Shown: positions 21,767-60,562 of the stretch, piece by piece
Numbering within the stretch: the first letter of the stretch is position 1
Layout of the letters: every line of letters starts with the position of its first letter
Assembly (NCBI GenBank): GCA_963514005.1
Contig: OY740791.1
Coordinates: 60,760,001-60,824,000, forward strand
Direction of reading: 5' to 3'
DNA length: 64,000 nt
Origin: Raja brachyura
Lineage: Eukaryota
Program-made: the position numbers and the translations under genes
Notes under the pieces: generated by a model
What the model was told of the DNA's origin: nothing
What the model saw: only the letters and a program-made list of their open reading frames with translations
Databases searched by the model: none

Positions 21767-23470
21767 TGGGGCAAACACAGGCAGGCGGGACTAGTGTAGA
21801 TGGGACATGTTTGTTGGTGTGGGCAAGTAAGGCCTGTTTCCATACTGTATGACTCTATAATGTGGGGAGCTGACAGGTGAAAAGTTGGATTGCACCTGTC
21901 TAGGATTGGTATGGATTTGATGGGCTGAAATGCCCTCTGTCTGAACTAAAATCATTTGGTGACTTCTACTCCCTACTGCATTGAAGTATCAGAAAGATAC
22001 ATTTAGGAGCAGTGTGATAAAATATCACCTTAGGACAACTTGCAGAATGTTTCAATGCTAGTATGTGTTAGCCAGCAAGAGTATTGATACAAAGCCATGT
22101 GTACATTGCAGTTTTGACTGTCAACTCTCATTAACATGAGGATTTGTCGTTTGGTCTCAGGTGTTCAATTATTCCATCAATGATCATCTGGCAAGTCCTC
22201 ACCAAACCTTCCCACACAAATGGAAAGCAAATGGTATTTTTCCAATGTAATTATATTTCTGTTACTAAACACTAATTTCCCCATGTGTCACATTTTTATG
22301 ATTAATGTACAAAACTTTCAAATAAAATGAATTTTAAAAAAAACATGAGTGATATTTTTTCCGTTTTATTTACAGTGGTAACTTTACATTTCCTTACAAC
22401 ATTAGAGGAGGCCATTCAGCCATTTGAGTCTATGTCAGCTTTCAGAGCAATCCCATCAGTACCATTCTCCACTGCAACCTATCCCCTTTCCAATTCCCCT
22501 TGCCAACCCCCCTCTACCCCCCCCATCACCACCAATTATTTTACCACTCACGTACACCAGGTGAAATCTACCTTGGCCAAGCCACACACCTTTGGGATGT
22601 GGATGCAAGCTAGAGCACTGGGAGGTAAACAGCTGATCACAGTGAGACTGTACAAAGCCCACAAAGATAGCACCCAAGGTCAGTATTGAACCTGGGTCGC
22701 TGGAGTTAAGTGACCCCATATAAATCCTTAAAGATTCAAGTCAATCCTGAAGCATTCACATCTCCAATGGGCCCCCCACCCTCTCCATGTCACTGAATAC
22801 CATGTCAGAATTAATATTGAGTAATAATAATAATAATAATAGTCATAGAGCTGTACATCATGGAAACAGGCTATTCGGCCCAACCAGTCCATACTGAAAA
22901 AGTTACCAATCAGAGCTACTCGCATTTTGCCATGTTTGGCCCATTAGTCTAAACCTTTTCTATCTGTGCATCTGTCCATTTGCCTTTTCAATATTGTAAT
23001 TGAACCCACGTCTGCCTTTTCCTCAGCTCACTCCACATACCCACCTCAGATTGCTCCTCAGATTCTCTTTAAATCATTCCCCTCGCACTAATGTATGACT
23101 TCTAATGTTAGATACATGCCATTGAGTTTCAGAAAAATGCTCTCCACTTTTACATCTGCCAGGCCCGACTGCCGGCAATGTGAACTCGATTAATGAGTTG
23201 CAGGTGTCAATAAACGTCAAAGTGGCTGCGCGTTCACAAAGGCAGATTGAGGGTTGGGCGGACGGTAGTGAGGGTTGAAACAGCAAATAGGCAATAGTGA
23301 TAGAGGTTATGGCCAGCTGGTTGCAGTCTGGACGCTGAGGTGCACTGTCTTAGTGAGGACCAGCATTGCCCAGTTTACAGACAAAAACTGTCTGCTCATA
23401 CTTTAACCGTCCATCTTGTGAGTCTAAAGATAACAACTAATGAACCAATGAAACAACTTTCTTTTCCAAA

Positions 23471-23706
23471 CGATAGACACAAAGTTGTGGAGTAACTAAC
23501 TCAGCAGGACAGGCTGTATCTCTGGAGAGAAGGCATGGGTGACCATTCAGATTGGGACCCTTCTTCTAACACCACCCATTCCTTCTCTCTCTAGATGCTG
23601 CCTGTCCTGCTGAGTTACTCCAGCATTTTGTGTTTATCTTTAGGAAAAGAAGGTTGTTTCATTTGTTGGTTCTTCACTTTAAACCAGCTCTGCAGTTCCT
23701 TCCAAT
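23471..23706. mobile_element. Penelope-associated fold-back element
   Basis: Inverted arms plus tail; TSD ACAAC[T/C]TTCTTTTCC at ~23453-23467 and 23707-23721. Confidence 0.75.
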
Positions 23707-24753
23707 ACAACCTTCTTTTCCTGTTGAGAAAGCCGCTGTAATTAGATCCCTTCCTATCAGTGGAACATACTTTTGGATATGTTTGCCATTAAACTCAATA
23801 TATATCTTCTGAATTGAGTTCTTATGGAGGGCTACTAATTACAACAAAGAGCATTCCCCTTCTTTAAAGAAGTTATGCAAATTAACCTGGTCAATCTGAC
23901 AATCCCAATTAATGTTCTCACTCTCTACCAAACAGAACCTAATAAGCGGCCCAAATCTTTCCAGTAGGATATTGAATCTTTTATAGGGCTGCTCTTTGAT
24001 ATCCCTTCCCCTCCCCTCTTCTCCTGGCACATTACTTCTCCTTCGCCCATAGTCATACAGCATAGAAATTGGCCTTTAGCCCACTAAGTATACACTGACC
24101 ATGTCTGTAGCTTCAGTTTACCAGTTTATCAGTGGATATCTTTAAGGCAGAGGTAGATAGATTTTTGATTAGTATGGGTGTCAGGGGTTAATGGGAGAAG
24201 GCAGGAGAATGGGGTTAGGAGGGAGAGATAGATCACCCAAGATTGAAAGGCAGAGTAGACATGATGGGCCGAACGGCCTAATTCTGCTTCGATCACATGA
24301 ATTATGACCTTATGATCTTATCTCCGCTTTTCAAAATCAAAATACTCTTGTACCATATGAATGGCAGATAATACTTTCTGTGTATAATATCTGATTCAGG
24401 TGTCACAGCAAACCCTATAGAACTTGCAACATGCATTATACATTAACACTCTATTCTGTTCTGAAGCAAAACACCCATTTTGATTTTGCATTGTGCCTCA
24501 AATATAAAATGTCCTGACACGCTGCACAGGAGTAATCAGACAAAGAGCATCACTGAACAAAAGAAGGAGAAATTGGGGCAGCTTGTGATCTCAAGGTCGA
24601 TCACAGAGACAGAACAAGGAAGCATTGTAAAGAAGCAAAGCTTCTGGAGGAAATTGCAGCTCCAGCAGAGCTGCCAAGGGTAGTACAAAGAGAGGGAATT
24701 GGCAGAGTGAAGGTACCATGCAGAGAAGCTGCCGATTTGCTCAGTGAACGTAC

Positions 24754-25439: not shown

Positions 25440-27234
25440 TCTCTAATATTTTACTTAAGAAATTAAATAACTTAATTAAATTCTGGAAAAAGCTTCCGAT
25501 GTATTTAATAGGTCGAATAAATGCTATAAAAATGATTTTTCTACCACAAATGGTATACCTATTCCAATCAATTCCCATATACCTACCAAAAAAGTGTTTT
25601 TTTAAATTGGATTCAGACATTAAAAATTTTATATGGGATTATAAATCCCATAGAATACAAAGAACAAAGCAGTAGGTGGATTAGCACTCCCTAACTTTAT
25701 GTACTATTATTAGTCAGTAAATATTAAAAATATGATTCAACTGCTGGACGATTCTGCCTAGCAGGTGGATTGGATTATTATGGAAAGAGAGGACTGCTCC
25801 CCTTGTAATATTGGAGCGATCCTCCACTCACCAATGCAGTTAATTAACACAAACTATAACAAAAACCCAATTATACATAGTACAATTAGAACTTGGAAAC
25901 AAATAAAACATAATTAAAAATTAAGAAATCTATCTCTCTTATCTCCAATAGTTAATAACCCTTCGTTTAAACCATTATAGACAAATAATTTATACAATGG
26001 GAAAGAATAAGAATTAAAACGCTCGGAGACTTGTATGAAACTGGAAAATTACTATAATTCAAACAATTACAATTAAAATATAATCTGGGAAACAATCATA
26101 TTTTAAATATTTTCAAATATGTGATTATCTGAAAAAATATACACAAGATTATTACAACATGCCATTAGATTTACTGGATGAAGCAATGAAGACAAAGGCC
26201 GAATCAGCAAATTTAATATCATACTTATATAATATTATTTAAAATGTAGAAATACCAACAACCAAAGGTATTAGAGGAGACTGGGAACAAGAATTAGCTA
26301 TTAAAATTTGAAAGAGAGTTGGGATGAACATTTATTAAATGTGCACAAATGTTCAATTAATGTAAGACACACTTTAATCCAATTTAAAATTTTACACAGA
26401 TTATACTATTCAAAAACCAAAATAAGTAAACTTTTTCCCAATGTATCACCTATCTGTGATAGATGCCAGTCTCAAGAAGCTACTATAGCGCATTCATTTG
26501 TTTTTTGTATAAAAATTCAAAGATTTTGGGCTGAAATCTTTGAAATCTTTACAAAATTATTTAAAATAAAACTGATACCAAAAACAGAATGGATTATCTT
26601 TGGAACAATGGAAGGTCGCCCTGAACTAAATGTGTTTCAAAAGAACCTATTTGAATATGGGTTAATAACTGGAAAAAAGCTTATTTTAAAATTTTGGTAA
26701 AACGCTCCTATACCAACAATAAACATGTGGACTTCAACTATGTTTGAAACACTACACCTGGAAGATATGAGACTCCACCTGGCAGGAAAATCAGATCGCT
26801 TTTATAGGACGTGGTCTTCATTCATAGAATTACTACAAGGATAAGGTGCAATAGCACTTTAAAAAGGCACCGGTGTCAGGTCTTGGTAAAGGGGGATGAA
26901 AAGTGTCAAGTTGGTATATCCCTTTTGTGTGATGTTTATAATAGAGCAACTGTCTTTCCTTTTTTCTTCTTTCTCTTTCTTCTTTTCTAGGGTCTATCTC
27001 TTAATTTCTTTTCTCTAATTCCTCGACTAAGGGGTCTTTCTTCTTTCCTTTTGTCACGCTTCTACACTTTCACTATTCTCTCTCACTTTCTCTATTTTCT
27101 CAATTTCTATCCTTTTTTAATAGCTTTAAAAAATGAAGGGGTACAATAAATGTAATAATATATACGGGACGTGTATTAATGTAATTTACTGTACTAATAA
27201 ATAAAAATGTAATTTAAAAAAAAAGAAAAAAAAA
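25440..27234 (+). mobile_element. 5'-truncated, decayed L1-clade LINE (ORF2 C-terminus, 3' UTR, poly-A)
   Basis: GRINAIKMIFLPQMVYLFQSIPI, NFIW, GGLALPNF, QFKILHRLY, CDRC..H...C knuckle; AATAAA at 27196; A-tail 27216-27234. Confidence 0.9.
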
Positions 27235-33955: not shown

Positions 33956-34467
33956 CTGAAAAAAAAAGAGCATTATTGCAAAACAGACAAAATGTGTAAA
34001 TAATCTGTATTTCTCCACTTTGTCTTGTAATCATTAATGTTTCCCTGACATGTCTTTGACTCAAATATGGTGCCAAAACCTGGAGACGTGTATATTGCCT
34101 CAATGGACTATTTCTATATACTGCGGACTTAATCTAGGATTATGCTTATGTATAATAATAATTGACTGAAATGTTTGCAGAAAAATAATTTCACTGTACC
34201 TCGATACAAGCAATAATAAAGAACCATTGAACATTGGGAGGAAATGCTACAGAACAACTCATGGGAAAAGTTAGCCAGTTACCCGATAGTGCCACTGATT
34301 TATTTTCCATTATCCATAGATAAATGTGAAAGAAACCGACTGATTTTCAAGATAAAGGATCATCCATTTAGATCTGAGAGAAAGTGAATTGGTGTTTGTC
34401 CTTAGAATTTTCTGTTCTAGATATCTAATCAATGCAGAGCATTTGAGTAAATTCCAGATTAGACTGA

Positions 34468-34689
34468 AGGTAGGCACAAGATGCTGGAGTAACTCAGCGG
34501 GTGAGGCAGCATCTCTGGAGAGAAGCAATGGGCGACGTTTCGGGTCAATACCCTTCTTGAGACTCAAAGAGGGTCTCGACGCGAATCGTCGCCCATTCCT
34601 TCTCTCCAGAGATGCTGCCTCACCTGCTGAGTTACTGCAGCATCTTGTGTCTACCTTCGATTTAAACCAGCATCTGCAGTTCTTTCTTA
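34468..34689. mobile_element. Penelope-associated fold-back element
   Basis: ~90-bp imperfect inverted arms plus ~31-nt tail; perfect 14-bp TSD CCAGATTAGACTGA (34454-34467, 34690-34703). Confidence 0.85.
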
Positions 34690-34734
34690 CCAGATTAGAC
34701 TGACATATTTTTGAACAAATAGGGTCAGAAGATT

Positions 34735-35030: not shown

Positions 35031-36149
35031 CCAAGATGGAGGATTCAGATGGAAAAGTAGATGCAAAGTTCATGTCCACTCCTGCTCCTATTTCACATCC
35101 TTCTCATACATAATTGCCTTCACCTCAGCTAGTAGAGGTCCTCAATTTACCAGTAGAAATGATGTTCCAAATAAGGTCACTGCTGGGGTTTGAAAAGTGA
35201 ACGCAACAGCCCTTGAAAGAGATGCAAAGATTGAGATGCCCCAATAGCCTAGGGCCACAGAGGCACTAGCATAGAAAATGGCCATTCAGCCCACCATGTC
35301 CATGTTGACCATCAAGTACCTAACTGCACTATTCACATTTACCTGGACCTGGCTCTGTTGCCTTTAATTTAGCATCTCGGTGCTCTTTCAGGTGGTTGCG
35401 AATCATAGCATCATGCAGCATAAAACAAGCCTATATCACCCATGATCCCAATCTTTGCGATCCCATTTGCTTACATTATGTTCATATCATATTTTTTGCC
35501 TGTCTAAATATCTGTCCATTTGTCTATTAAATGTTGTCATTGGATCTGCTCCTACCATTTTCTCTGGCAGATAATCACCTGCCTCTGAGTGTAACTTACC
35601 CCTTAGAGCTTCTTTACATTCCTCCTCCCTCACCTCTAGATCTGGAGTCCCTGCCCTGGGAAAAGCTTCCGACTATCTATAACATCATGTGAATTGAGGC
35701 AGGTGTAATAACAACATTTAGGATACATTTGGACAGGTACATGGAGAGGAGATATTTTTCAATGGATATGGGCCAAATGCAGGCAAATGGATCAGTTTAG
35801 CTGAAGCATCTTGGTTGGTATGGACGAGCTGAGCCCAAGGGCCTGTTTCTGTGCTGTCTGCCTCTATGACTATCTATCCTTGTGAGAGTACATGCCTCCA
35901 CCACCCCCTAAGGCAGTGTTTCAGGTATTAATCACCCAGTGGATGAAAACTTGCATCCTCTGATCCCCTCTAAACCTCCTCTCTCTACTGTACACTCATG
36001 CTGTCTGATACCGTTGCCACGTGAAGACCTTTCAACTATCTTCCCTATTAAAACTCCTCACCGTGTTGTATATATCTATCAGGTTGCCTCTCAGCCACCT
36101 CTGCTGTGTGGTAAATGAATACTCGGTCAGACTCAGACTCAGTCAGCCT

Positions 36150-37000
36150 ACCACAATAAAATTTGCCGACGACACCACGGTGGTAGGACTGATCAGCGAC
36201 AACGACGAGTCAGCCTACAGGGAGGAGGTCCAGCACCTGACAACCTGGTGTGGCAACAATAACCTCGTTCTCAACTCCCAGAAGACGAAGGAAATCATTG
36301 TTGACTTTAGAAAGAACAGAGGGGGCAGACACACCCCCATCCATATAAACGGGACTGAGGTGGAGCGGGTCTCCAACTACAAATTCCTCGGGGTACACAT
36401 CTCGGAGGATCTGCCCTGGTCCCTCAACGCCTCCAAGCTGATCAAAAAGGCGCAGCGTCTTTACTTCCTGAGGAGGCTCAAAAAAGCCCACCTGTCCCCC
36501 CAGATCCTGACCAACTTTTACCGCTGTACCATCGAAAGCATCCTGACCACCTGCTTTTCGGTACGGTACAGCAGTTGCACCGTGGCAGACAGGAAGGCAC
36601 TACAACGGGTGGTGAAAACCGCCCAGTACATCATCGGTGCCCCGCTCCCTGCCATGGATGCCCTCCACCGAAAACAGTGTCTGAGACGGGCCGGGAAGAT
36701 CATCAAAGACCCCTCCCACCCTAACCATGGACTGTTTGCCCTCCTACCATCAGGGAGGTGGTACAGGAGCCTCAGGTCCCGCACTAGTAGGATGAGGAAC
36801 AGCTTCTACAATAACACCATCACACTGCTGAACTCGGAGTCCCGCCGATAGATTTCTCCAGTCTCTCTCCGTCCACATTGTCTGCATTCTGTACTTATTT
36901 CTATATTGCTATTACTACGAACTGACGCTAAACTGCATTTCGTTGTACCCATACTTGTATCTGTGCAATTACATTAAAGTTGAATTGAATTGAATTGAAC
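36150..37000 (+). mobile_element. Young 5'-truncated Rex1/Babar LINE (RT C-terminus)
   Basis: Open frame IKFADDTTVVGLISDNDESAYREEV...KTKEIIVDFRK...LLPSGRWYRS; CpG-rich; (TTGAA)n tail. Confidence 0.92.
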
Positions 37001-37600: not shown

Positions 37601-37815
37601 AGGGCCTGTCCCATTTTCATGACCTAATTCACGACCTCTGCCGAGTTTGCCCTTGACTCATAGGTAGGTAGGTAGGTAGGTAGGTCATAGCGGGCCGTGA
37701 TGCTAGTCGTAGGTACTCGTGGCATCAAGTAGGTCGGGGCATTTTTCTAGCGTGATGAAAAATGTCCATGAGTAAAAAAGGTCGTGAATTAGGTCATGAA
37801 AATGGGACAGGCCCT
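37601..37815. mobile_element. PIF/Harbinger-type MITE inside the head of a SINE (~37570-38095, +)
   Basis: Perfect 37-bp TIRs AGGGCCTGTCCCATTTTCATGACCTAATTCACGACCT; internal (TAGG)n. Confidence 0.88.
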
Positions 37816-38562
37816 CTACAGGGCCAGAAATCCGGGTTTGATCCTGACTATGGATGCTGTCTGTACCCGTCTGTACGTTCTTCCAATGACCTGTATGGGC
37901 TTTCTCAGAGATCTTCGGTTTCCTCCCACGCTCCAAAGATGTACAGGTTTTTGGTTTAACAGGCTTGGTATAAAAAAGGTTAAATTGTCCCTAGTGTATG
38001 TAGGGCAGTGTTAATGTGCGGGGATCGCAGTTGGTGCGGACTCGATGGGCCGAAGGGTCTGTTTCTATATTGTATCTTTAAACTAAACTAAACAAAAACT
38101 ATCCCATATGATTTTTTCAACGTCTTATCTACCCATGCTGCCACCTTCAAGCATGAACTTGTACACTGCGGTCCCCCTGTTCTTCCACACTAACTGACAC
38201 CCTATGATTCCTTTTGTAACCTGTTCTAAACATTCTGCATCAGCAAGCTGGCCGCGGAAACCAGTGGCATGCTGAACTAAACTGCAGCACTCCCAAAGAT
38301 GGTAACTGTGGCCAGACCAAAGTGCCAACGTTCATGTGAAAGATTAATTTGACATTGTGGAACTGCATGACATGGGGTAGAATAGATGCCAAGGTTTCAG
38401 ATATCTCACTGGAGATCTCCTGGTTCTGCATAGGCCAGGAAATCCTGCAAGGCAGCTACAGATAATCATGGAGGTTAATGCCAGAATCAAGTCTTGTGGC
38501 TTGATCTTCAGAAGTTCAATGAATATACAGGAGTGATTAAGGGCAGTCTATGAACTATTAAA

Positions 38563-38780
38563 GGGTTACACAAAAAGCTGGAGAAACTCAGCGGGTGCAG
38601 CAGCATCTAAGGAGCGAAGGAGATAGGCGACGTTTCGGGTCGAGACCCTTCTTCTGAAGAAGGGTCTCGACCCGAAACGTCGCCTATCTCCTTCGCTCCT
38701 TAGATGCTGCTGCACCCGCTGAGTTTCTCCAGCTTTTTGTGTAACCCTCGATTCTCCAGCATCTGCAGTTCCTTCTTTAA
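38563..38780. mobile_element. Penelope-associated perfect fold-back element
   Basis: 93-bp perfect inverted arms (38562-38654, 38656-38748), 1-nt spacer, 32-nt tail; TSD CTATGAACTATTAAA (38548-38562, 38781-38795). Confidence 0.9.
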
Positions 38781-40794
38781 CTATGAACTATTAAATCCCA
38801 TTTACTATCTGTTGCATCACTAGTCTTGGTCAATGCTGAATGCACCATGCCCCCATCACTCAACCACCAACATTCACAATCACAACATGCTAAGTGAATT
38901 AGTACAATGCAAATTTACAGAAAACTCTACTTTAAGTGTTGGATATGTCAGGAGGACACATTTGTATGTTGTTTTGCATCCTTTACACATTATTTCTCCA
39001 GACCTCACATAGGTTCTTTGGAGATCCCAAACACTGGCAAATATTAATCCCTGACCAGCACTGCTCCCTCTAAGATGTCACTTGCTTCCATGGGACATAG
39101 CCTCGCTTTGCAATAGCAAGAGAAAGCAGAAACTAACAAGAGGGGTGGATTAGTCCCCATGGAAGAAAAATGCAGGCCATTACTGAGGTGTTCAGGGATG
39201 AGGTTGCAACAAGGCTGAAAGTATTGAACATGACTGTATCCCCATACATATTCCATATAACCTATCATCACTCAATCCACATTTACAACCAGGCTAGGGT
39301 TCAAGAAGACCGTAAAACTCCCACCCGGGCCTGGAGGGGTGAAGTCACATGTTTGGCTGATGTGGACTTCACTAAGTACTTGCAGCTTGTAATCTATCAA
39401 GGTGCCATCAAGCCGGTGTCAAACATCAGAGGAGGTGGTTAGCCATCTCCATCCTTATTCAGGATGGAGCCCAACTTTACCACAAAGGAATTGATGGCCA
39501 ACTGTTCGCCTGCCCATAGTTGCCGCCACAGTGAAGCAAGGCATTGCCAATGTTGCAGCATCCACTGCACATGTCGTGTTCATCCATCGACTGAGTTCTG
39601 CACTGCAGCTCAGACTGTTACCATGGTTACTGTGACTTACAATGAGCCAAGGGGCTTGCGAGGTCCCACAGCAGGTTGCCAGGATCTCCGACGAGTTGCC
39701 CCAAGTGAGTGGCATTTCTACTGTGAGTAGAAGCAGCCACCTTTCCCACGACTACCGAGACAACTGCTTTGCACAAGCCATCTCTGGCTGCCGGGGAAAC
39801 AATTACTAACATAAGAAAAGATACATGGACCCAGGGCAGTGATTAGGACTGATTATCATGTGGTGTATAGTATATGGATGAAATGTATTAATTTGGCATG
39901 CAATGTTTATTCTGCAGTATATTTTATTCTAAAATGTGCCCTAGCTGTTGCTATGATGGTCATTTAAGAGGAAGTCAGGTGTAAGAATGTTTAAGGTATA
40001 AGAATAAGAATTTTGAAATAATAGTTTATCTAAGATTATAATCGTTTGAATTCTTCAGACGGTCGGGTTAGAAAGAAGGGTTTGGGCCCGAAACGTTGCC
40101 TATTTCCTTTGCTCCATAGATGCTGCTGCACCCGCTGAGTTTCTCCAGCACTTTTATCTACCTTAGAAATATGTTTTCTCCTTCCACCCATTTCTAGTTT
40201 GCCTCCTTTCACCCATTTCTTCTTCTTCATCCTATTCTTTCTCCTCAATGGTAAGCTGATTCTGAGCTCTGGCCCCACAGTGGTCAGTAAGTGCAAGACA
40301 CAACAGACCTCCAAGGGTCTTGGCACCTTTAATTCCAATCACTTCCAGTCTGGTCCAGGCAGCGGGAGTATAGGCCATGAAATAACTCCTCCAGGCTTCG
40401 TGTCATCGATATGTTCAGTGCATCTCTCCCACATAGGTTGCTTGCTGATACGTAGATTAGAAGGTACCATTTGGTTTACAGAGGTGAGATGTATACAAGT
40501 GTAGATGGCACAGCGCACTGACCAACAGGAACTCTTGCTATAATCCCACACTTCAGCTTGACATTGATGATGTGGATCGACCTGAGGTGCCATGGTCAAG
40601 GTACCTGCCCAGATGTTTCATCGGTCAACGGGGAAGGGAACCTGCCCATAAGCTCGGCAGTCGATGGGACCTCACCCGAAGGCTCATTGGACAGTGGGAC
40701 CGGGAATCTGCCCAAAGGCTCCTCTGTTGGCGGGATTGGGAACGCGCGCAAAGGCTCATTGGTCGGCATAATCGGGGGGGAGCTGGAGACATCT

Positions 40795-41090: not shown

Positions 41091-41669
41091 AGGAGCATAG
41101 GTCGGTAGGAGGGTGAACCAGAGTAAAGCCTCCAACACCTGGGAGATAGGCTGTAGGAGGCAGCCCCCGGGACACAAAGAAGTGGAGAGAGATGTCAGAT
41201 CACGGGAACTGCTCCAGTACATCTACCGGACCTTGGACTCTGAATAATGGCACCAAAAATGGCGGGATTTGTAATGTATGCAAAAATAATTTGACTGTGA
41301 AATTGCACATGTGACAAATGACTATTGAACTATCTTGGTTCTGGTGTACACAGCATTGGCACCGAGCGCCCACAGGGTGATGATAGTTCAGTCACTTGTT
41401 TCCGTAACATGGGACGCCTGCTTTCATCATCCATTGATATCAAAGCAATTACACTAGTAGATCATATCAGCAGGAACGTCCCTGCCTGAACAGCATTGCC
41501 TCGCACGTATTCTCATGCTGCTCGGGTAGCTGGTTTACTCCTTGAACTCTCTGTGTGGTTATCATGTGCTGCTGAGAGTAAACTAAACAGACTGCCAGAA
41601 GAACTCGACGGGGCATGCAGCACCTGTGGTGGGAAATAGATAGACAATGTTGCGGAGTCAGGACCCTTA

Positions 41670-42143
41670 AGGGCCTGTCCCACTAGCGCGCGATTAGACG
41701 CGACAAGCGCGACAAATTCGGACGCGGGGGTCGCGTGGGGGTCAGGCGATCCCGGTGCGAGTGAAGGGCCTGTCCCACTAGCGCGCGATTACACGCGCGA
41801 CGTCCGAAGGAAGGACGTTATTTTTCATCACGTGACGATGCGCATGAGCATGCGCGTTGCACGACGTCGGGCAGTGACGTCATCACGCAACGCCACGCTG
41901 AAGACGCACAACGTCAAAACGTCATCACGTTAATCACGTTCTGCGCGACAGGATTTTGCCGCGCGTAATTTTTTAAGCAGTGTCGGTTTTTGGACACTAC
42001 GCGCGATGTCGACACCAGCTACACACAACTCGACGAGACTCCGGCGATCGCAGTGGGACAGGGTCACGCGAGGCCGGGCGACTAAAGCGACCACGGTAGG
42101 TCGCGCTTGTCGCGTCTAATCGCGCGCTAGTGGGACAGGCCCT
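41670..42143. mobile_element. CpG-rich PIF/Harbinger-type MITE
   Basis: Perfect 44-bp TIRs, TTA TSD, and a third internal TIR copy at 41765-41791. Confidence 0.9.
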
Positions 42144-42739
42144 TTAGTCTCTCTGCTGGAGTAGAAGGGAAATGGAGAGACAATCAGAGAAGAGGTGGGG
42201 AGAGCTGGCAAGTGATATGTGGAAGGTGGACACAAAATGCTGGAGTAAGTCAGCGGGACAGGCAGCATCTCTGGAGAGAAGGAATGGGTGACGTTTTGGG
42301 TCGAGACCCTTCTTCGGTGATATGTGGATCCAAGTAAGGAGGGGTTGATTGGCAGATACGTTGGGGGATGGAGGAAGAGATAGACCCTGTAACTTCTGCC
42401 TGTACGTCATCTTGTTAGCAAAAATAACCAACAATAAGACAGAAATGATTAAAGCTGATTTTAAATAGTATTGACAGGGAGTTACTCCCTGCTCTTGAAC
42501 ATATTGATCCATTCAAAGGTAAGAGAAGGATTGGTTGGAGTATTAAAGTATAAAATGAACGGAACACAGTGATGATCTGCAGCCTATGTGCACTTCCATA
42601 TGTAAAAGTCAACGTCAATATAAGGTGTGAAGCAACTAGCAACACAAATCGCCACACACGGCATAGGTGCTGTTTTGGGGATCCACAGTCAGTCATGACT
42701 TTCATTAAAGGATTTACTGCCCTGAATTTCATACTCTAA

Positions 42740-43019: not shown

Positions 43020-43084
43020 TTAGGCTCAAGCTCCCACGCAACAAATCTTGCGTGCTTAATCTTCACCAGATCAGGGAAAGCCAA

Positions 43085-43562
43085 ACACTTTAAGTCCGCA
43101 TCCAATTCCTACACTGCCCTTTCTGTCCTGGGCCTCCTCCATTTTCAGAGTGAGGCCAAACATACATTTGAGGAACAGCACCTCATATTTCACTTGAGAA
43201 GCTTACAACCCAGCGGTATGAATATTGTTTCCTCGAACTTCAAGTAACTCTTACATCCCCTCTCTCTCTGTCTCTCCCTCATCCTAGTTGTCGTACTAGT
43301 TTCACTGTCGTCCTGCTGAGTTTCACTGCTTGTATCACTCACCACAGCCAACAATGGACCATTGTGGGCTCCACTTTTCCATGATCATCGTTGCTGGCTT
43401 TGATTTGACTTTTTGCATATCTTTCACACATTTGTTCGATGTACCTCTTGCTTCCCTCTCCCCTGACTCTGTCTGAAGAAGGGTCTGGACATGAAACGTC
43501 ACCTATTCCTTATCTCCAGAGATGCTGCCTGACCCAATGAGTTACTCCAGCTTTTTGTGTCT
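43085..43562 (+). mobile_element. Penelope-like element 3' fragment (GIY-YIG C-terminus, UTR, terminal unit)
   Basis: LSVLGLLHFQSEAKHTFEEQHLIFHLRSLQPSGMNI; CTGAAGA...GAAACGTC at ~43473-43500. Confidence 0.85.
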
Positions 43563-43822
43563 GACGAAAGTACTAAAGGCATCTTTAGAATGCCATTGAA
43601 ACAAGTCGGCAAGGTGGTCATAGTCATAGAGTCATAGAGTGCTACAGTGTGGAAACAGGCCCTTCGGCCCAACTCGCCCACACCGGCCAACAATGTCCCA
43701 GCTACCCAAGTCCCACTTGCCTGCACTTGGTCCATATCCCTCCAAACCTCTCCTATCCATGGACCTGTCTAATTGTTTCTTAAACGACGGGATAGTCCCA
43801 GCCTCAACTACCTCCTCTGGCA

Positions 43823-43917
43823 CGTCTGAAGAAGGGTTTCGGACCGAAACGTCGCCTATCTCCTTCGCTGCTTAGATGCTGCTGCACCCGTTGAGTTTCT
43901 CCAGCCTTTTGTGTACC
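43823..43917 (+). mobile_element. Solo 95-bp Penelope terminal unit with hammerhead-like core
   Basis: Perfect 15-bp TSD CTACCTCCTCTGGCA (43808-43822, 43918-43932). Confidence 0.85.
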
Positions 43918-44245
43918 CTACCTCCTCTGGCAGCTTGTTCCATACACCAACAAAAAGTTACCCCTCAGATTCCTATTAAATCTTTTCCCCTTTACCTTGA
44001 ACCTATGTTCTCTGGTCCTCGATTCTCCTACGCTGGGTAAAAGACTCTGTGTATCTACCTGATCTATTCCTCATGATTTTGTACACCTCTATAAGATCTC
44101 ATTCTCCTGCGCTCCATGGAATAGAGACCCAGCCTACTCACCCTTTAGTCCTGGCAACATCCTCGTAAATCTTTTCTGAACCCTTTCAAGCTTGACAATA
44201 TCTTTCCTACACCATGGTGCCTAGAACTGAACACAATATTCTAAA

Positions 44246-44799
44246 GGGTACCCAAAAGGCTGGAGAAACTCAGCGGGTGCAGCAGCATCTAAGGAGCGAA
44301 GGAGATAGGGGACGTTTCGGGTCGAGACCCTTCTTCAGACTGGTTAGAGATCAGGGAAACGAGAGATATAGACGGTGATGTGGAGAGATAAAGAACAATG
44401 AATGAAAGATATGCAAAAAAGTATCGATGATACAGGAAACAGGCCATTGTAAGCTGTTTGTAGTGTGAAAATGAGAAGCTAGTGCGACTTGGGTGGGGGA
44501 GAGATAGAGAGAGAGGGAATGCCAGGGCCCGAGGGCTGAGGGAGAGGTGGGAAGGGGAGGAGGCAGCCAGGGTTAACAGAATTGAGAAAATTCAATGTTT
44601 AAGCCCCGAGGATGCAGATTCCCCAAGCGGAATATGAAGTGCTGTTCCTCCAACTTGCGGTGTTGCTCACTCTGACCGTGGAGGAGGCCCAGGACCGAGA
44701 GGGGGAGTTGAAGTGCTGAGCCACCGGGAGGTCGGGTTGGTTATTGCGGACCGAGCGGAGGTGTTCGGCGAAACGATCGCCAAGCCTCCGCTTGGCCTA
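44246..44799 (-). mobile_element. 5'-truncated Penelope-like element
   Basis: Minus strand encodes KRRLGDRFAEHLRSVRNNQPDLPVAQHFNSP...EEQHFIFRLG; TSD AATATTCTAAA (44235-44245, 44800-44810). Confidence 0.88.
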
Positions 44800-45440: not shown

Positions 45441-46189
45441 AAATTCTAAGTTTAGAATTGTAAAATCATGACTTGTGTCAGCTTTGCTTTGGTGATGATA
45501 CTGTTGCCTCACCATTAGAATTTCATAATCCTACCCTGGATTCATGACCCAGCCCAGTTGGGGATTTAGAGAGTGCCGCGCTGTACGAGGTGTGGTCCGT
45601 GGATGTGATACGTACTCTCTCAGGTTGCACTCTCTTGCAATGGAGTTGGATCTGGTGTCAGGCTCAGTACTTTCTGCTCATACATTGGCTTTGAAACAGA
45701 TCATCTGATTATCATTGCATTGGTGTTTACGAGACCTTATTTTTTTACAAATTGGTTGCCACTTTTATTATCTTACTGAAGTGATTGCACTTCAAGTTAA
45801 ACACGTAATTAATACTGAAATGGTTCAGGATACCCAGAGATGAGGAAAGGCAAAGAATAAATTCAAGGCTTTCTTTTTTTCTTTCAAATACTCTTAAATA
45901 AACCAGGAGTCAGGTCAGAGATTCCTGCTCTCTGGGAAATACTCTGTCGAACGAATGAACCAAATGAAACCAGGCAAAACTATCAGAGCTCTGTGGCCCA
46001 GGGGAAAGCGCCCACCTCTCTACTTTTTGGACTGATTATTGACCCTCTATCAATAGCCTATTTGTTATGTTGCTTAGTCCCTGCCTATCTTTAGCAAGTG
46101 CAAGTTTACAAATGCATCAAGATGCTAAAACTAATGTTTCCATGAAACAAAGGTCAATTTGTCGTATGAAACATAGCTCAATTCCCCAC

Positions 46190-46980
46190 CATTTACATGG
46201 TAAGTGGTAGGGAATTGAGGAATGCTGTGCAACAGAGGGATCTAGGAATAACTGTGCAACTGTGCATAACTGTGCAACTGTTCCACCTGAAGGTGGAATC
46301 ACATGTAGATAGGGTGGTAAAGAAAGCTTTTGGTGTGCTGGCCTTTATAAATCAGAGCATTGAATATAGGAGTAGGGAAGTAATGTTAAAATTGTGCAAG
46401 GCATTGGTAAGACCAATTCTGGAGTATGGTGTACAATTTTGGTCGCCTAATTATAGGAAGGATGTCAACAAAATAGAGAGAGTACAGAGGAGATTTACTA
46501 GAATGTTGCCTGGGTTCCAGCAACTAAGTTACAGAGAAAGGTTGAACAAGTTAGGTCTTTATTCTTTGGAGCGCAGAAGGTTAAGGGGGGACTTGATTGA
46601 GGTCTTTAAAATGATGAAAGGGATAGATAGAATTGACGTGGATGAGCTTTTCCCATTGAGGGTAGGGAAGATTCAAACAAGAGGGCATGACATGAGAATT
46701 AAGGGACAGAAGTTTAGGGGTAACATGAGGGGGAACATCTTTACTCAGAAAGTGGTGGCTGTGTGGAATGATCTTCCTGCAGAAGTGGTGGAGGCAGGAT
46801 CGATTTTAACATTTAAAAGTAAAGTGGATAGGTATATGGACGGGAAGGGAATGGAGGGGTATGGTCTAAGTGCACGTAGATGGGACATGGGGAAAATGAA
46901 TGGTTGGCACGGACTGGAAGGGCCGAGAAGGCCTGTTTCCGTGCTGTAATTGTTATAAGGTTATATGTTATATGGTTATT
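46190..46980 (+). mobile_element. CR1 LINE 3' part, open frame
   Basis: ORF 46197..46949 ALVRPILEYGVQFWSP...RRLRGDLIEVFKMM; same subfamily as 33315-33605; 18-bp tandem duplication near 46248. Confidence 0.9.
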
Positions 46981-49268: not shown

Positions 49269-49523
49269 CTGAAGAGAATAAAAACATTTTAACTCACACA
49301 AAACCAAAATATAAATGTCACTACATGTCGTACCCATCACTACTTAAGTGTAATGGCTTAGCCTGGCATTTTAATTATTTGGAAGAAATTGGCATTTTTA
49401 AACATAATTATAAACAATATTTCTAAATAATATATGCAAGGTCCTATCAACCTAATGGTGCTAATATTTCTAGTTTACATGTTTTATATGAGATCTTTGT
49501 ATTTTGAACCATTCTCTGCATAA

Positions 49524-49853
49524 TGGCCCTGTCCCACGGTACGAGTTCATTCCAAGAGCTCTCCCGAGTTAAAAAAAAATCAAACTCGTGATAAGCACGG
49601 AGAATGAACGTAGCGGGTACGTCGGAGCTCGGGGACGTCTCTTAGCGGCTCGTAACGCTAACGGCAGGTACTGGGGAAGACTCGCTAACTGCAGGTAAGC
49701 TCCGGAAGACTCGTGAAGATTTTTCAACATGTTGAAAAACGTCCACGAGAGCCCCGAGTACCGATGAGCGGCCATTACCGTAAATCTCCGAGTTCGAATC
49801 AGGGCAAACTGGGGAGAGCTCTTGGAATGAACTCGTACCGTGGGACAGGGCCA
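49524..49853. mobile_element. PIF/Harbinger-type MITE (family A)
   Basis: Long TIRs TGGCCCTGTCCCACGGTACGAGTTCATTCCAAGAGCTCTCCC; TAA/TTA flanks. Confidence 0.9.
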
Positions 49854-50999
49854 TTATCCTTTTATAATGAGACCAAATAGGGCAGTAGAAATGTCAAATG
49901 CAAAGATGGAGCATAGCAATAGTGATGAGTCATTCCATCCTTCCAGCCTGATGTACCCTTCAATCATAATCATCATAAAACAAACCAAAGAACGATAACA
50001 CAAACTTTTAAAGCACACTAAAAATAACAACAAAAAAAAGACAAAAGAACAGACAGACTGATGCGAGGCTGCCATCGAGGCACCACCCGGTTGTAAATCA
50101 GACTCCTATCTCCATAATTATAGTAAACACTGTGGTGCTCATCCACTACACATTGAGTGCTTGTATCTCAACTATTTCTGTGCCTTGGATCTTTACTATT
50201 ATTACCTGGGCAATATTTGTCTTGGTTATGGAGTCATAGAGTCATACAGCACAGAAACAGGCCCTTCGGCCCAGCCTGCCCATGCTGACCAATGTGCCAC
50301 ATCAATTTCAGTCCCACCTGCCTGCCTTTGGCCCATATCCCTCTAAACCTTTCATATCCGTGAACCTGTTCAGATTTATTTTAAGTGTTGTTATAGTACC
50401 AATAAATGTGTTAAAGTAGCAATGTGTTCCGATCTTTTTAATTGACTCGGCTTTTTGTGTGGGAATTTCGGATGTGTGCACACCTCCATATTAAATAGTA
50501 ATTGAGTCAGGAAGCACAGAAGAATGACCACTAATCCATGCTGCACTTATTGTCCATCTACACTGATCCCATTTGCTTGCATTAGCCTCTATCTTTTTAT
50601 ACTTTGCCTATGCAATCCGAAGGTCTCTTAAACATAGTGATTGTATTTGGTTTTCCCACCTCTCTAGCAATGTGTTCTAGATGTCAACCAATTTTGGTCA
50701 AAAAACACTTTCCCTGTGGATTCTCTCTACAATTCCTTCTTCTCACTTTTATATACCACTCTCAGGTCACCCCCTAAAATCCCTTCTACTCCAGCAAAAT
50801 ACAAGCCCAGCCTATACAATCTCACCCCACGCAAAGGGTGGTGGGTGCATGGAACAAGCTGGCAGTGGAAGTAGTTGTAGGCAGGGACCATCCCTAAATT
50901 TAAGAAACAGTTAGACAAGTACATGGAAAGGACAGTTTGGGAGCGATATGGACCAAATGCAGGCAGGTAGTACTAGTGTAGCTGGGACATGTTGGCCAG

Positions 51000-51384: not shown

Positions 51385-51992
51385 GACATGTTGGCCAGTG
51401 TGAACAAATTGGGCTGATGAGCCTGTTTCCACACTGTATCACTCTAGGACTCGATGACTATGCTTGAAGTCCCCGTCCATTCCTGCATAATCTCTATTGC
51501 ACTCTTTCCAATACCATCACATTCTACCTAAAACATGGCAACAAGAATTGCACACCGTACTTGTCTCACAATGTTTTATACAACTGCAACGTACACCTCT
51601 ATGTTTATATTGTATATCCCAATTTACAAGGGCAAGCCGACCAGGTGTCTTCTTCAAAACCCTGTCGACTTGTGTTGTTACTTCCAGGAAAGTAAGGATT
51701 TTACCCTCGGTTCTGTTTGTTCATTAACATTTCTTTGCCTTAGTAATTACTGGACGTGTTCTATCATTATTAAACTTTGCAAAATGCATCAGGTTTACTG
51801 TCCTCTGGGCAGGTACAGTGAGGTGCAGACACAGCACAAATTAAAATCTTACTTGCAGCAGCATCACAGCCACTTGGACAGGCACCAGAGAAAACATAAA
51901 CTGTACATACATTATGAAGGCCGTGTAGAAACAAGGCATTCATACAAAATCAAAAGACAAGTCAGGGTTGAGCAAGGGATGGCACTTCCTTA

Positions 51993-52321
51993 AAGCCCTT
52001 TCCCAGGGTACGGGTTCATTCCAAGAGCTCTCCCGAGTTTAAAAAAATAAAACTTGTGGTAAGCACGGAGAATGAATGTAGTGGGTATATTGGAGCTCGG
52101 GGACGTCTCTTAGCGGCTCGTAACGCTAACGGTAGGTACTCGGGAAGACTCGCTAATGGCATGTAAGCACAGGAAGACTCGTGAAAATATTTCAACGTGT
52201 TGAAAAATGTCCACGAGAGCCCCGAGTACCGACGAGTGGCCATTACCATAAATCTCCAAGTTTGAATCAGGGAAAACTCGGGAGAGCTCTTGGAATGAAC
52301 TCGTACCATGAGACAGGACTT
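51993..52321. mobile_element. PIF/Harbinger-type MITE (family A, older copy)
   Basis: Collinear with 49524-49853; TTA TSD. Confidence 0.85.
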
Positions 52322-52434
52322 TTACTGAGGTAGGATTAGGGTCGCGCAAGTTGGTTCAAGACCCTCATGGTTATAAGAATGTTACGTTTCCTGAACCTGA
52401 TGGTGTGGATTTCAGGCTTCGGTACCGCTTGCTG

Positions 52435-53763: not shown

Positions 53764-54119
53764 ATATAGACACTAAACTTTTTATTTTTCATTTATTATA
53801 TTGCTCACAGTGTACTATGTTTACATATTTTGTGTGCTACTGCAAGTAAGAATTTCATCATTCTATCTAGGATAAATTACAATATCCTTAAAATCCACTT
53901 TCCTCATCATGCTTTAGAATATGCAAATAATTTTCATTAATTTAATCATTTTATTATGCGCTGAAGGGCAATTGCTTCTACATTAAGTCCACCGCATTGT
54001 AATCCAACTACTTTATACCTAGTCAGCGTTAAATGAAAGATGGCCCTGGATATTGTGAATATGTTTGTCAGTGTCAATTTGGACTGCTTTCCTGCATCTG
54101 CACTTGGCTACCACAGATG

Positions 54120-54330
54120 GATAGACTCAAAATGCTGGAGTAACTCAGCGGGACAAGCAGCATATCTGGAATGAAGGAATGGGCGACGTTTCAGGTCGAC
54201 TGAAGATGGGTCTCGACCCGAAATGTCACCCATTCCTTCTCTCAAGAGATGCTGCTTGTCCCGCCGAGTTACTCCAGCATTTTGTGTCTGTCTTCGGTTT
54301 AAACCAGCATCTGCAGTTCCTTCCTACACT
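54120..54330. mobile_element. Penelope-associated fold-back element
   Basis: Inverted arms plus tail, ending ~65 nt into the intron from the donor of the 79-nt exon. Confidence 0.8.
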
Positions 54331-54395
54331 TCTTGGCTACAGGGGTTCTGGTCATTTAAGTGATGCATCTGATGCTGAGTTCCGTAATCTCTTAC

Positions 54396-54701: not shown

Positions 54702-55200
54702 CAGGGGTCGGCAACCTATGGCGCCCGGCCCAAATCCGGCAAGTACCCAAAAATCATCCGTCCCATAGGCATATATATTTTTTCCTCAATCATCCGGCCC
54801 GCAGACTTTCGTCATCACCGGTACCTGGAATGTTTCAGAAAGAACTGCAGGTGCTGGAAAAATCAAAGGCAGAAAAAAATGCTGGAGTGAGTTTCTCCAG
54901 CATTTTTTTCTACCTCCAGTGCCCAGAAGGTGATTTGGCAGTACTGCATCTTGCGCAAAGCCGCCGGCGGCACGGCCACGCGCCTTCTGTGTCTGGGCTT
55001 CACTGTCGAAATTGGGGTTGTCAGTAGGTCGGGGACGAGTGAGTGTGAGTATTTCAGCTCAGTGCTCCAGGTGGCATCCTCGAAGGGACGGGATCTATGT
55101 GAACACGTGATTTGATGCCTGCCATCCGGAGCGGGATCCATGTGTACACGTGATATATGCGTGGCCCGCCATCCGCTCACACAGACATATGGCCTGGCCT
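54702..55200 (+). mobile_element. hAT-type non-autonomous DNA transposon, right end lost
   Basis: Starts CAGGGGTCGGCAACC; collinear with 62539-63028; holds a collapsed Penelope hairpin at ~54835-54915. Confidence 0.75.
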
Positions 55201-56190
55201 CCTCATCTTTATATTTACACTCTGTAAATTAGTTGGGTTTGGACAATGCATTTTGTCAGTATGCCAGCACACTTTGTATAACGATAGGGTTTCCCAAAGA
55301 GGGCACTATGGTACAAAGCTGCTCATAATTTGGCATTGTCATTCAGAGAATATATGGCACAGCAGGTAGTGCCGCTGCCCCACGGATCCAAAGGTGCGGG
55401 TTCGATTCCGACCTCTGCTGCCGTTGGTGTGAAATGTGTTAATTCTCCCCATGACTGCGAGGGCTTTCCCTTGGTGCCTTGGTTCTCTCTCACATGTTAA
55501 ATAAGTGCTGTGAGGTTAATTGGCCACTGTTAATTACCATGGCATGGATGATAGCAATAAAGGTTCAAGGGGGAGTTGACACACATGCGTACGACAAAAT
55601 TAACTATAGGGATATTGGGAAATCAGGAGTGGGATAATCAGACAAAGGGATTGATATTTGGCCCAATGAATCATGTGGCTTTCTTCATTATAATTGTAAC
55701 AACCAAAAGAATGACTTGTGTACAGACAGAAGAAAGCATAAGCGGGTGACCATGTATTACGAGGTGGAAGGAGCTGCATTCCCCAAAAATGGTAGCAGTT
55801 TTCTGTAATGCAAGACTATGCCATTTGTGCAGGTGTCAAGAAGTATAAGTTAAAACATTAAAAAATTGTGCTTATTCATTTACTATTTCCACTATGTTGC
55901 CTACCATCCCAGGAAGGCTGGCTCCTCCTGGGGGCGGAGTTGGATTCATGGGAATTGGTCCTGGAGGGGAGGATGACTCCCCTCCCCCCCCCCCCCCCCC
56001 CCCCAACTCAACCTGTTCACATCCCCAATCCTTTCCACTCATTACTTTAAGTTCTTGTTTCATGTATTTGGCGTTTTATGACTGTTGACAGACCAATTTC
56101 TCTCCTGAGATAAATAAAATTCTGTTGTATCATATCGTATTTCAATCCCCATGGTCAATGTAAAAAGTTAATACCTGCTAATATTAATTT

Positions 56191-57172
56191 GTGGACTAAG
56201 TGGGACCCGTTGGTCACACGGGAGTTCTGGTTCCCCAACGCAACCCATTCCCCGATGCAATATTCCACCATTCACCTGTTCCCCAAACGCAACAGCAGGA
56301 ACATTCTGTAGCCGGGGGATACGGACGGCTTCAGGCGGGGCCTTTTGGGGACTGGTGGGTGGGGTGTGGTGGAAGGGGGGGGTGTGGAGGAGGGGGCGTG
56401 TAGGGGAGGAGGGGCATGTTGGGGAGGGGCGAGGGGTGGGGGCAGTGTTTGTGGGGGAGAGGGGGTGTGGTGGAGGAGGAGGGGGGTGTAGGGGAGGAGG
56501 GTGTGGTGGAGAAGGGGGGCTGTAGGGGAGGAGGGGGGTGTGGGGGAGGGTGTGTGTGGGGGAGGGTGTGTGTGGTGGAGGAGGGTGGTGTGGGGGAGGA
56601 AGGGGGTGTGGGGTTGGAGGAGGTGTGTGGGGGAGGAGGGGGGTGTGGGGGAGGAGGGGGTGTGGGGAGGGTGTGTGTGGTGATGGAGTGTGTGTGGGGG
56701 AGGGGTCTGTGTGTGGGGGAGGGGTCCGTGTGTGTCGAGGAGGGGTGTGTGTGTGGGTGATAGGGGAGTATGTTGTGGGCGTTGGTGTGGGGGGGGGGTT
56801 GTGGTTGCGGGGGGGTGGGGGTGTAGTGGGGGGGGGGTTGTGGTGGCGGGGGGGGCGGGGATTGTGGTCGCCACTCTGCTCACTCCGCTCTCGCTGCACT
56901 CTGCACTCTGCTCACTCCGCTCCTTCAGCTTTATTCTCCTCGCCGCCGGTGATTAACAGCGGGTGCCGGAAGGGGCGGTTTTTATGATTTTTGCACCTTC
57001 ATAACTTTTGTAATATTCCACCGATCGGAACAAAACTTGGTGCACTTGCAGCACAAGAGAACAGTGAGTAAGGTGGTGAAAAAATGTAGCGCTATTGTAT
57101 TACGTTTTTGCGCAAATGTAAAAACAACACAAATCGTAAGAGGACAAGATGAGAGTTTTAGTTATGTCTAGA
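56191..57172 (-). mobile_element. Non-autonomous Helitron-like element, second copy
   Basis: Shares GACTAAGTGGGACCCGTTGG..TCACACGGGAG and ..GAGTTTTAG.TAT...TAGA|T ends with 20616-21766; G-rich interior. Confidence 0.68.
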
Positions 57173-57364
57173 TTTAATGTTAGCTTATTGATTTATTTTA
57201 CTGTTATGATATGAATTTAAAAAAATCCCAGCGAGCGTTTAATTGCTGCTCCATCAAACGCTGACAATAATGTGTAATATTTCTATGTACAATCTGATTA
57301 ACAATTATTACGCCAAATTCTGTGAGTTGCAACATATGCAGTGTTTGACCTAGTACCTCTAATT

Positions 57365-57551
57365 TATGTGTAGGAGGGAACAGCAGATGTTGGTTTACGC
57401 CAAAGATAGACAAAAAGCTGGAGTAACTCAGCGAGACAGGCAGCATCTCGGGAGAGAAGGAATGGGTGACATTTTGGGTCCTGAAACGTCACCCATTCCT
57501 TCTCTGCAGAGATGCTGACTGTCCTGCTGAGTTACTCCAACATTTTGCGTC
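57365..57551. mobile_element. Penelope-associated fold-back element (tail on the left)
   Basis: TSD TACCTCTAATT (57354-57364, 57552-57562). Confidence 0.8.
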
Positions 57552-57851
57552 TACCTCTAATTCATCACTCTTTTCAGAAAAAACAAAATGTGTAAATAAT
57601 CAGATATTTTGTTTTCAAGTATGTTATGGGCGGGGGTTAAATACAGGGTTAAATATTGAACCTTAGAAAAAAACATCTCCTTCTACTCATGTGGATTCAA
57701 AGCTGTCTACATCGAGGAGCAGAAATGGCTTCAGATGAATGTGTCATCCCCACCAATTAGCACACACTCTGTATCACAGTAAGTGCCTAGATTCTGCACT
57801 CAATTCTTGATTACAACTTCCCGAACCTTCTGATGCCAGAGACAACACTTA

Positions 57852-60545: not shown

Positions 60546-60562
60546 TTAGCATCTCTTTCATG

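Follow-up and report, generated by a model that had tools for sequence, protein, structure and literature searches.

Positions 38548-38795 of a 64,000-nucleotide (nt) stretch of Raja brachyura DNA (contig OY740791.1, positions 60,760,001 to 60,824,000; the whole stretch is called the window below, and all coordinates are positions within it) hold a hairpin insertion that is the minimum, without an open reading frame (ORF), of a known layout of Penelope-like elements (PLEs), in which a pseudo-long terminal repeat (pLTR) is present in inverted form. There are eight such inverted stubs of one family in 64 kb, and each of them joins an arm that ends at a short 3' end point (site 1) to an arm that runs on through a tail to a long end point (site 2). 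The most likely mechanism, and in our judgement a probable one, consists of staggered nicks in the target, two primings of reverse transcription, an early stop of the cDNAs and joining of their ends through microhomology.

Anatomy of the hairpin insertion

The two 93-nt arms, 38562-38654 and 38656-38748, are 100% complementary around a central T38655. The left arm (38562-38654, minus strand) is the inverted 3' end of a PLE pLTR without its tail, and its outer end lies at site 1, which is likewise used by non-inverted copies. The sense arm (38653-38748, plus strand) begins with TCTGAAG at family position -2, where +1 is the G at 38656. It is followed by an unpaired 32-nt tail (38749-38780, plus strand), which ends at site 2 and is also present on the non-inverted copy at 63794. 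Two perfect copies of a 15-bp target-site duplication (TSD), CTATGAACTATTAAA, flank the hairpin at 38548-38562 and 38781-38795, and this 15-mer is found just twice in the whole window. A duplication scoring 15 occurred in none of 300 random position pairs. A preliminary description of this DNA had reported the perfect arms, the one-sided tail and the TSD, and all three are confirmed, with the detail that the final base of the left TSD also belongs to the left arm. The same description placed a 1-nt spacer in a hammerhead core. T38655 does lie within the core, but it is not a foreign spacer: it is family position 0, the U4 of the CUGA core. The match to the family carries the sense arm back to -2 (38653) and the inverted arm to +1, and the arms overlap by 2 nt (38653-38654).

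A minimal type I hammerhead motif is found at 38654-38681 (plus strand) by comparison of the sequence with the features in PMC4209133. It comprises the CUGAAGA core (38654-38660), an unpaired A, stem II (38662-38673), GAAA and a palindromic ACGU, with the predicted cut after 38681, family position +26. The core boxes, the unpaired base before helix II, the G-C closing pair and the palindromic 15.2-16.2 are those of minimal PLE hammerheads. Judging from the sequence, the ribozyme is probably inactive in this copy because it lacks the upstream strand of helix I and its motif is tied up in the duplex. Helix II is 90% paired across the family alignment, with no compensatory changes and no excess over shuffles, and helix I has 2 bp at most. 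No Rfam model, hammerhead included, matches at gathering score anywhere in the window.

The hairpin is exceptionally stable in folding predictions (z = -29.6; none of 200 shuffles is equally stable), with a duplex energy of -196 kcal/mol over 93 bp. It has no ORF, as the GIY-YIG coding part was lost by truncation. A product without an ORF that folds into a 93-bp duplex is unlikely to propagate, and the insertion is therefore probably a dead end. If read through, it might give rise to double-stranded RNA.

An endonuclease-bearing PLE family

Searched by BLAST with the arm and its tail, the window yields 27 hits, which correspond to 20 loci with 28 arms. Eight loci are inverted (13.7k, 23.5k, 34.5k, 38.6k, 54.2k, 54.9k, 57.4k and 60.6k, named by position) and 12 are non-inverted. 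The layout had been said to recur at 34468, 23471, 54120, 57365 and 60563; all five are inverted family members, and two more (13.7k and 54.9k) had been missed. In four copies (43.5k, 44.3k, 58.9k and 61.2k) the pLTR continues upstream via a pyrimidine tract into the end of a GIY-YIG coding sequence, and a 98-aa fragment at 60773-61066 matches the Pfam GIY-YIG family PF01541 with an E value of 3.3e-5, above cut-off. The suggestion of a Penelope-like origin thus stands, and the hairpin and its family almost certainly derive from an endonuclease-bearing (EN+) PLE.

Among 156 candidates, 17 longer proteins are homologues of the EN fragment, the best being from Leucoraja erinacea (82% and 72%) and Mobula hypostoma (69%). 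Remnants of reverse transcriptase (RT) are present in three of them (P0003, P0006 and P0014). The best-aligned homologues with upstream sequence, P0002 and P0003 (72% and 69% over EN), carry a CxxxxCxxC linker, a zinc-finger-like trait given for Neptune and Nematis in PMC8557442. The EN fragments of the window start downstream of this linker, and no PLE RT was recognised among the 53 window ORFs of at least 110 aa, read by eye. The clade is probably Neptune, an assignment drawn from the homologues because they carry the linker and the window fragments hold no RT. A PDB sequence search with the EN fragment returned two chance hits only, and no full-length PLE copy is present in the window. The pair 60.6k and 61.2k resembles a partial tandem, yet the inner fragment bears its own TSD. 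As a side observation, three skate gene models (P0001, P0002 and P0015) join a PLE EN fragment to unrelated coding sequence, one of them named neuromedin-U receptor 1; these are probably annotation chimeras.

Terminal inverted repeats with a TSD are also what a miniature inverted-repeat transposable element (MITE) would show, and Rfam microRNA (miRNA) models match at E ~1e-6, but we can set aside with near certainty that the hairpin is a MITE, the precursor of a miRNA or a fold-back artefact of assembly. The TSDs are not short and fixed but measure 9-15 bp, with differing sequences, at seven of the eight hairpins (one of them weak); the termini are asymmetric through the one-sided tail, the eight centres differ, and the sequence joins a GIY-YIG ORF without a break. 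Every miRNA score falls far short of gathering, with matches on both strands, as generic hairpin scores do, and an artefact would lack both the TSD and the seven decayed counterparts. The preliminary description was right that these are no MITEs although easily mislabelled as such, given the variable TSDs, asymmetric ends and ORF-linked relatives.

Two fixed 3' ends

Sorted by 3' end, 16 of the 28 arms are short (site 1, ~+87 to +93), 11 are tailed (site 2) and one is intermediate. Site 2 lies ~32-36 nt beyond site 1, and the 59.6k copy stops a few bases before the tail end. The 12 non-inverted loci (eight short, three tailed, one intermediate) use the same two points in 11 cases. Every inverted locus pairs one short arm with one tailed arm, the site-1 end being that of the inverted arm in 8/8; under independent choice of ends, a short plus a tailed arm in 8/8 has a probability of 0.0006-0.004. 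In single-unit RNA a conserved 8-bp helix, AGAUGCUG/CAGCAUCU, is predicted around site 1, and we regard it as a lead only because it has no compensatory changes and no excess over shuffles.

A biochemical counterpart is the Poseidon element PAc of Anolis carolinensis (Frangieh et al. 2024, PMC11167929). In vitro both target strands are nicked and extended, and reverse transcription begins at two sites inside the RNA, which mark the limits of the genomic tail. A dimer is predicted for the protein, and the reaction does not depend on hammerhead cleavage. By analogy, the end pattern in the window would be the expected trace of two primings, one per site; the two appear to be coupled, because no inverted copy lacks either kind of end. 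Copies that extend into the EN ORF have these ends as well. For this reason the stubs may be doubly truncated products of the autonomous element, and need not be the distinct mini-retroelement with a short RNA template that had been proposed earlier.

An inversion that arose after insertion, by template switching in replication or by conversion at a tailed single copy, could explain the perfect identity of the 38.6k arms as recent homogenisation. We consider it highly improbable: the perfect TSD abuts the inverted arm with a 1-nt overlap, and a site-1 end of the inverted arm in 8/8 loci is not expected from rearrangement.

Relationships among the arms

The identity test and the tree used 25 of the 28 arms, with three short arms excluded. 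The tree divides the family into two subfamilies, A and B, at 100/99 support, and each contains both inverted and non-inverted copies. The 38.6k arms belong to B together with five non-inverted copies, the nearest of which is the 44.3k copy (87/91 columns). Forcing the 13 hairpin arms into one clade costs 52.8 log-likelihood units and is rejected (approximately unbiased test, p-AU 3.2e-5). Because the hairpins have eight different centres, their clade is rejected and the TSD abuts the inverted arm, they were very probably formed at insertion and not copied from one master, as had been proposed. One or several master hairpins, that is, a retro-amplified mini-element whose centres were later diversified by deletion, would fit the clustering of the centres described below and the instability of palindrome centres. 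The star without resolution that 11 of the 13 hairpin arms form in subfamily A would fit as well, and because of this star the tree alone leaves room for an A-type master. This explanation is nevertheless very unlikely in view of the rejected clade, the grouping of the 38.6k arms with non-inverted B copies and the mixture of both kinds of copy in each subfamily; in addition, a 93-bp RNA duplex of the predicted stability would be a poor template.

That the arms match within a copy had been stated for all copies, and this is clear in two of the six that can be tested, 38.6k (72/72) and 34.5k (68/73), while in the other four the identity is 77-86%. The five older pairs have 5, 1, 0, 4 and 1 derived variants common to both partners (total 11), compared with a mean of 0.74 over 148 non-partner pairs (P = 0.003 for the partner excess, the pairs not being independent). 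The 38.6k arms have two private variants that are absent from the five other B copies.

Centres and the 5' stop

The 5' reach of the tail-less and tailed arms, in that order, is +1/-2 at 38.6k, -4/-1 at 34.5k, +12/-1 at 54.2k, +16/+14 at 57.4k, -1/+9 at 60.6k, +1/~+21 at 23.5k, +10/+85 at 13.7k and +65/+72 at 54.9k. All eight centres differ, in agreement with the preliminary description; six lie between -4 and +21, and the exact overlap at the junctions amounts to 0-2 nt. Odd palindromes form three of the centres: TC-T-GA (38.6k), AG-T-CT (34.5k) and G-A-C (57.4k). The central base comes from the tailed arm at 38.6k and from the tail-less arm at 34.5k. At such centres, two cDNA ends that had stopped at an identical point would pair with a single mismatch in the middle. 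At 13.7k the tailed arm starts at +85, just ~7 nt of it lying beyond site 1, while the tail-less arm reaches +10, or alternatively -1 via a 7-nt microhomology. The tailed arm of this copy is too short and therefore cannot have been the template of the tail-less arm. A shared centre combined with a fixed short TSD, the mark of a true MITE, is not seen among the eight hairpins. A shared centre is in any case too blunt a test, because the centres gather around one common stop, where the same centre could arise more than once by independent events. In subfamily A the hammerhead core (-1..+5) is nearly complementary to the site-1 sequence (+89..+95), as seen at 13791-13801, which may reflect RNA pairing or junction microhomology.

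The 5' ends are concentrated at one place. Twelve of 27 hand-curated ends, or 10/19 when one end per locus is taken, fall between -4 and +2, and among 20,000 simulations with ends spread uniformly from -130 to +85, a range chosen by the analyst, not one is as tight in 7 nt. The cluster coincides with the 5' edge of the hammerhead and not with its cut site at +26. Hammerhead cleavage was rejected as the origin of the 5' ends, with at most one of 27 near +26 (the 23.5k tailed arm, +21 to +26). In five of the six long copies the hammerhead edge follows a CAG that closes a 72-88% pyrimidine tract, and in five of six the 55 nt before it contain no further AG. An intron of Penelope in Drosophila virilis, described in PMC2377424, has its end at the 5' boundary of helix I (PMC4209133). 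A 3' splice site, a transcript start and an RT barrier are candidate causes of the stop. No window copy clearly joins ORF-end sequence to TCTGAAG as a spliced junction would, and 18.1k and the six long copies retain the upstream tract. The region between the EN stop codon and the hammerhead (copies at 17056-17306, 43050-43562, 44245-44799, 58778-59200 and 60772-61264) measures ~100-250 nt and varies strongly in length and sequence between copies, with conserved flanks. Some copies have a GT-like signal at the EN stop codon, as in an intron.

Two primers or a fold-back

We propose that the 38.6k hairpin would be a dead-end insertion of an EN-bearing PLE, in which copying took in the final 93-128 nt alone and did so twice. 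As with the anole PLE in vitro, the GIY-YIG endonuclease would nick both target strands, 15 nt apart according to the observed TSD. From each free 3' end, reverse transcription would then start within the element RNA, at site 1 for one strand and at site 2 for the other, the end points being taken as RT start sites on the anole model. Coupling might come from a single RNA that is read twice with strand displacement or from a dimer that holds two RNAs. Both cDNAs would run 5'-ward, often halting at the 5' edge of the hammerhead, where the observed ends cluster. Their 3' ends, of the same polarity, would join via 0-4 nt of microhomology. At 38.6k the join would use the quasi-palindrome TC-T-GA of the hammerhead core, and its central mismatch would give the apparent 1-nt spacer. 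Fill-in would leave TSD, inverted arm, sense arm, tail and TSD. On balance, this two-primer route is likely.

The published alternative is self-priming, put forward for PLE inversions by Arkhipova et al. 2013 (PMC3846280) and complemented by a remark on 'EN-mediated resolution' in Craig et al. 2021 (PMC8557442). A cDNA or antisense RNA would fold back at its 3' end and copy itself, and a staggered EN cut would leave the tail on one side. Such a route accounts for identical arms with common private variants and for one short and one tailed end, and at 54.2k, and nominally at 38.6k and 57.4k, the tailed arm does reach further 5'. It needs a foldable stem-loop, however, and 38.6k, 34.5k and 57.4k offer a 1-nt loop and a stem of 1-2 bp, while three or four centres have no microhomology. 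Unless trimming occurred, the tailed arm must extend beyond its partner at the centre, and it is the shorter one at 13.7k, 23.5k, 60.6k and 54.9k. The tail limits, moreover, correspond to RT start sites in vitro (PMC11167929). The preliminary description had left self-priming open as a route; because of the 1-nt loops and the one tailed arm that is far too short, we disfavour it and regard it as unlikely.

Several points weigh against the two-primer route and the formation of the hairpins at insertion. The mechanism is drawn entirely from 20 loci in one window, and the in vitro data concern a Poseidon-clade element, with inverted products absent from the main text (PMC11167929). Six of the eight inverted copies are old, with arms that are 77-93% identical or too short for scoring. 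The partner arm is the closest relative in two of six copies; in the remaining four it takes a rank of 2-16 among 24, and to this the star of hairpin arms in subfamily A must be added. The junction limits were read by eye, since a mutated reference or wrong anchors made automatic extension misplace four of eight. Palindrome centres readily suffer deletions later on, which could imitate varied centres and asymmetries. A staggered endonuclease cut of a hairpin intermediate would also yield one short and one tailed end. Finally, an empty paralogous site within the window was found for one of 14 loci, the non-inverted stub at 43823-43919 (empty site at 50860-50874), and for none of seven hairpins.

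A more specific version of the two-primer route is put forward tentatively. One PLE ribonucleoprotein would read a single RNA twice, with the nicked strands obligatorily assigned to the two RT start sites; the cDNAs would halt at a programmed barrier, and their ends would anneal via the UC-U-GA of the ribozyme core. The barrier would be the hammerhead 5' edge, with CAG|TCTGA after the pyrimidine tract as a candidate 3' splice site.

Comparison with known systems

Inverted 5'-truncated copies and tails of 30-40 bp are given as typical of PLEs in PMC8557442, and a curation guide lists the same features (PMC8969392). The closest described structure is Pen2a_Av of Adineta vaga, in which the shorter pLTR is inverted, one inverted pLTR bears a tail of 31 bp and the TSD measures 9 bp (PMC3846280). 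It shares with 38.6k the inverted shorter 5' pLTR, the one-sided tail (31 versus 32), a short junction overlap and a TSD (9 versus 15). Pen2a_Av differs in keeping an 842-aa ORF between direct pLTRs, whereas 38.6k consists of two ends of 93-128 nt and has no tandem. PAc and the window family both have two end points that bound the tail, and in neither is the hammerhead cut the insertion end. Further likenesses are the nicking and extension of both strands in PAc and the modest AT-richness of the window TSDs (65% versus 56%). Unlike PAc, the window family probably belongs to the Neptune clade, its start-site loop is not AC-rich, and its priming ends overlap the TSD by 0-5 nt. Its likeness to Neptune is the CxxxxCxxC linker, seen in the homologues P0002 and P0003 and not in the window fragments.

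Non-LTR retrozymes are short non-coding derivatives of PLE pLTRs with a type I hammerhead, reported from the only chondrichthyan that was sampled (bioRxiv 10.64898/2026.07.22.740005). They are head-to-tail tandem repeats, in contrast to the head-to-head single insertions of the window. The family was rejected as a retrozyme: the 32 tandem-repeat rows include no family locus and show the unit in no tandem array.

In LINE-1 (long interspersed nuclear element 1) twin priming, the 3' end of the second strand primes internally and produces a TSD, an inverted piece, a sense piece and a TSD with a microhomology junction. As a rule its two pieces do not overlap, the position of the internal site varies, and poly(A) serves the 3' primer. 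The 13.7k copy resembles such a product almost exactly. The window hairpins as a group are unlike it, as both sites are fixed, ~32-36 nt apart, and the pieces overlap almost fully.

Among the literature matches listed, with few subscription papers and without Repbase or Dfam, none described batoid stubs, the rule of one short and one tailed arm, or a two-primer model for PLE inversions, which is weak evidence of novelty. The anatomy itself is known and will not surprise a PLE specialist, because the layout has already been published (PMC3846280, PMC8557442).

Other copies and sequences in the window

The inverted copy at 34454-34703 (plus strand), an older member of subfamily A with the AG-T-CT centre, has a perfect 14-bp TSD. 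The older copy at 23453-23721 (plus) carries an insertion within its tail and a 15-bp TSD with one mismatch, and its tail-less arm extends ~20 nt further 5' than the tailed arm. At 54103-54340 (plus), also older, a perfect 9-bp duplication lies 8 nt off the left arm, and the tailed arm extends 13 nt further 5'. The older copy at 57354-57565 (minus), centred on G-A-C, has its tail at the left and a 14-bp TSD with one mismatch. The locus at 60550-61287 (plus) consists of an inverted copy (60564-60771) with a perfect 13-bp TSD, the right copy of which (61275-61287) was displaced by a second PLE fragment in the tail end. This nested, 5'-truncated subfamily B fragment (60772-61264, plus) contains the GIY-YIG sequence at 60773-61066, the pyrimidine tract, the hammerhead and a site-1 end. 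It sits at the tail's very end in the older subfamily A hairpin, and its 11-bp TSD is tail sequence; such nesting is consistent with the reported targeting of pLTR DNA by the PLE endonuclease. The preliminary description had given most of the recurrences a TSD of their own, of 11-15 bp: those at 34468 and 60563 are perfect, those at 23471 and 57365 have one mismatch, but that at 54120 is only 9 bp.

The two inverted copies that had been overlooked are smaller. The one at 13693-13846 (plus) has a tailed arm of ~43 nt and a tail-less arm of ~83 nt; its TSD is weak (14 bp with two mismatches, a score equalled by 8/300 random pairs). The other, very short, lies at ~54832-54915 (minus), and both its arms carry the same T-run variant. 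Non-inverted subfamily B copies include a GIY-YIG fragment plus pLTR at 44245-44799 (minus), with a site-1 end and an 11-bp TSD, within a LINE ORF fragment; a tailed copy at 63794-64000 (minus; 95% over 125 nt), which ends at the window edge; and a stub at 43823-43919 (plus), with a 15-bp TSD and the empty site noted above. TSDs of the family measure 6-17 bp over 15 loci, the shortest falling within chance, and none was found at 18.1k, 43.5k, 54.9k and 58.9k. The inverted pair at 43815-44349 was rejected as a hairpin and not counted, being two independent insertions with a TSD each. Both belong to subfamily B; they are placed tail-to-tail at a distance of 325 nt, are 90% complementary and mimic a long inverted repeat.

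True MITE-like short elements are present at 37601-37815, 41666-42147, 49520-49857, 51992-52322 and 8405-8733. Their terminal inverted repeats of 37-51 nt start with a GGGCCTGTCCCA-type motif (13 motif hits), in contrast to the hairpins. Many decayed LINE-type ORF fragments fill the window (9843-10640, 14165-16336, 19017-19427, 36009-36851, 46170-46949, 62040-62387 and 26305-26700), which by their motifs we take to be CR1-like, L2/Rex-like and, in one case, L1-like. No host exon was recognised among the window ORFs of at least 110 aa. Two related G-rich low-complexity tracts, 20671-21448 and 56168-56920, have short tandem units and strong GC skew.

Implications

How PLE tandem and inverted structures form is stated to be without resolution in PMC8557442. 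The two RT start sites (PMC11167929) are the sole biochemical clue to these structures, and self-priming (PMC3846280) is a published guess. The many copies in the window offer clues to how inverted PLE insertions form. The stubs are the smallest form of the inverted PLE structure, short enough for clean assembly and dense enough for counting, and a public batoid genome could decide between two primers and a fold-back by computation alone. In repeat annotation they are easily mislabelled as MITEs or miRNA precursors. If the window is typical, extrapolation gives a density of ~100 stubs per Mb. Should the tentative reading of a single RNA read twice be true, the hammerhead region would set the size of the insertion without any cleavage, and the genomes of batoids would preserve frozen intermediates in very large numbers, some of them able to yield silencing double-stranded RNA.

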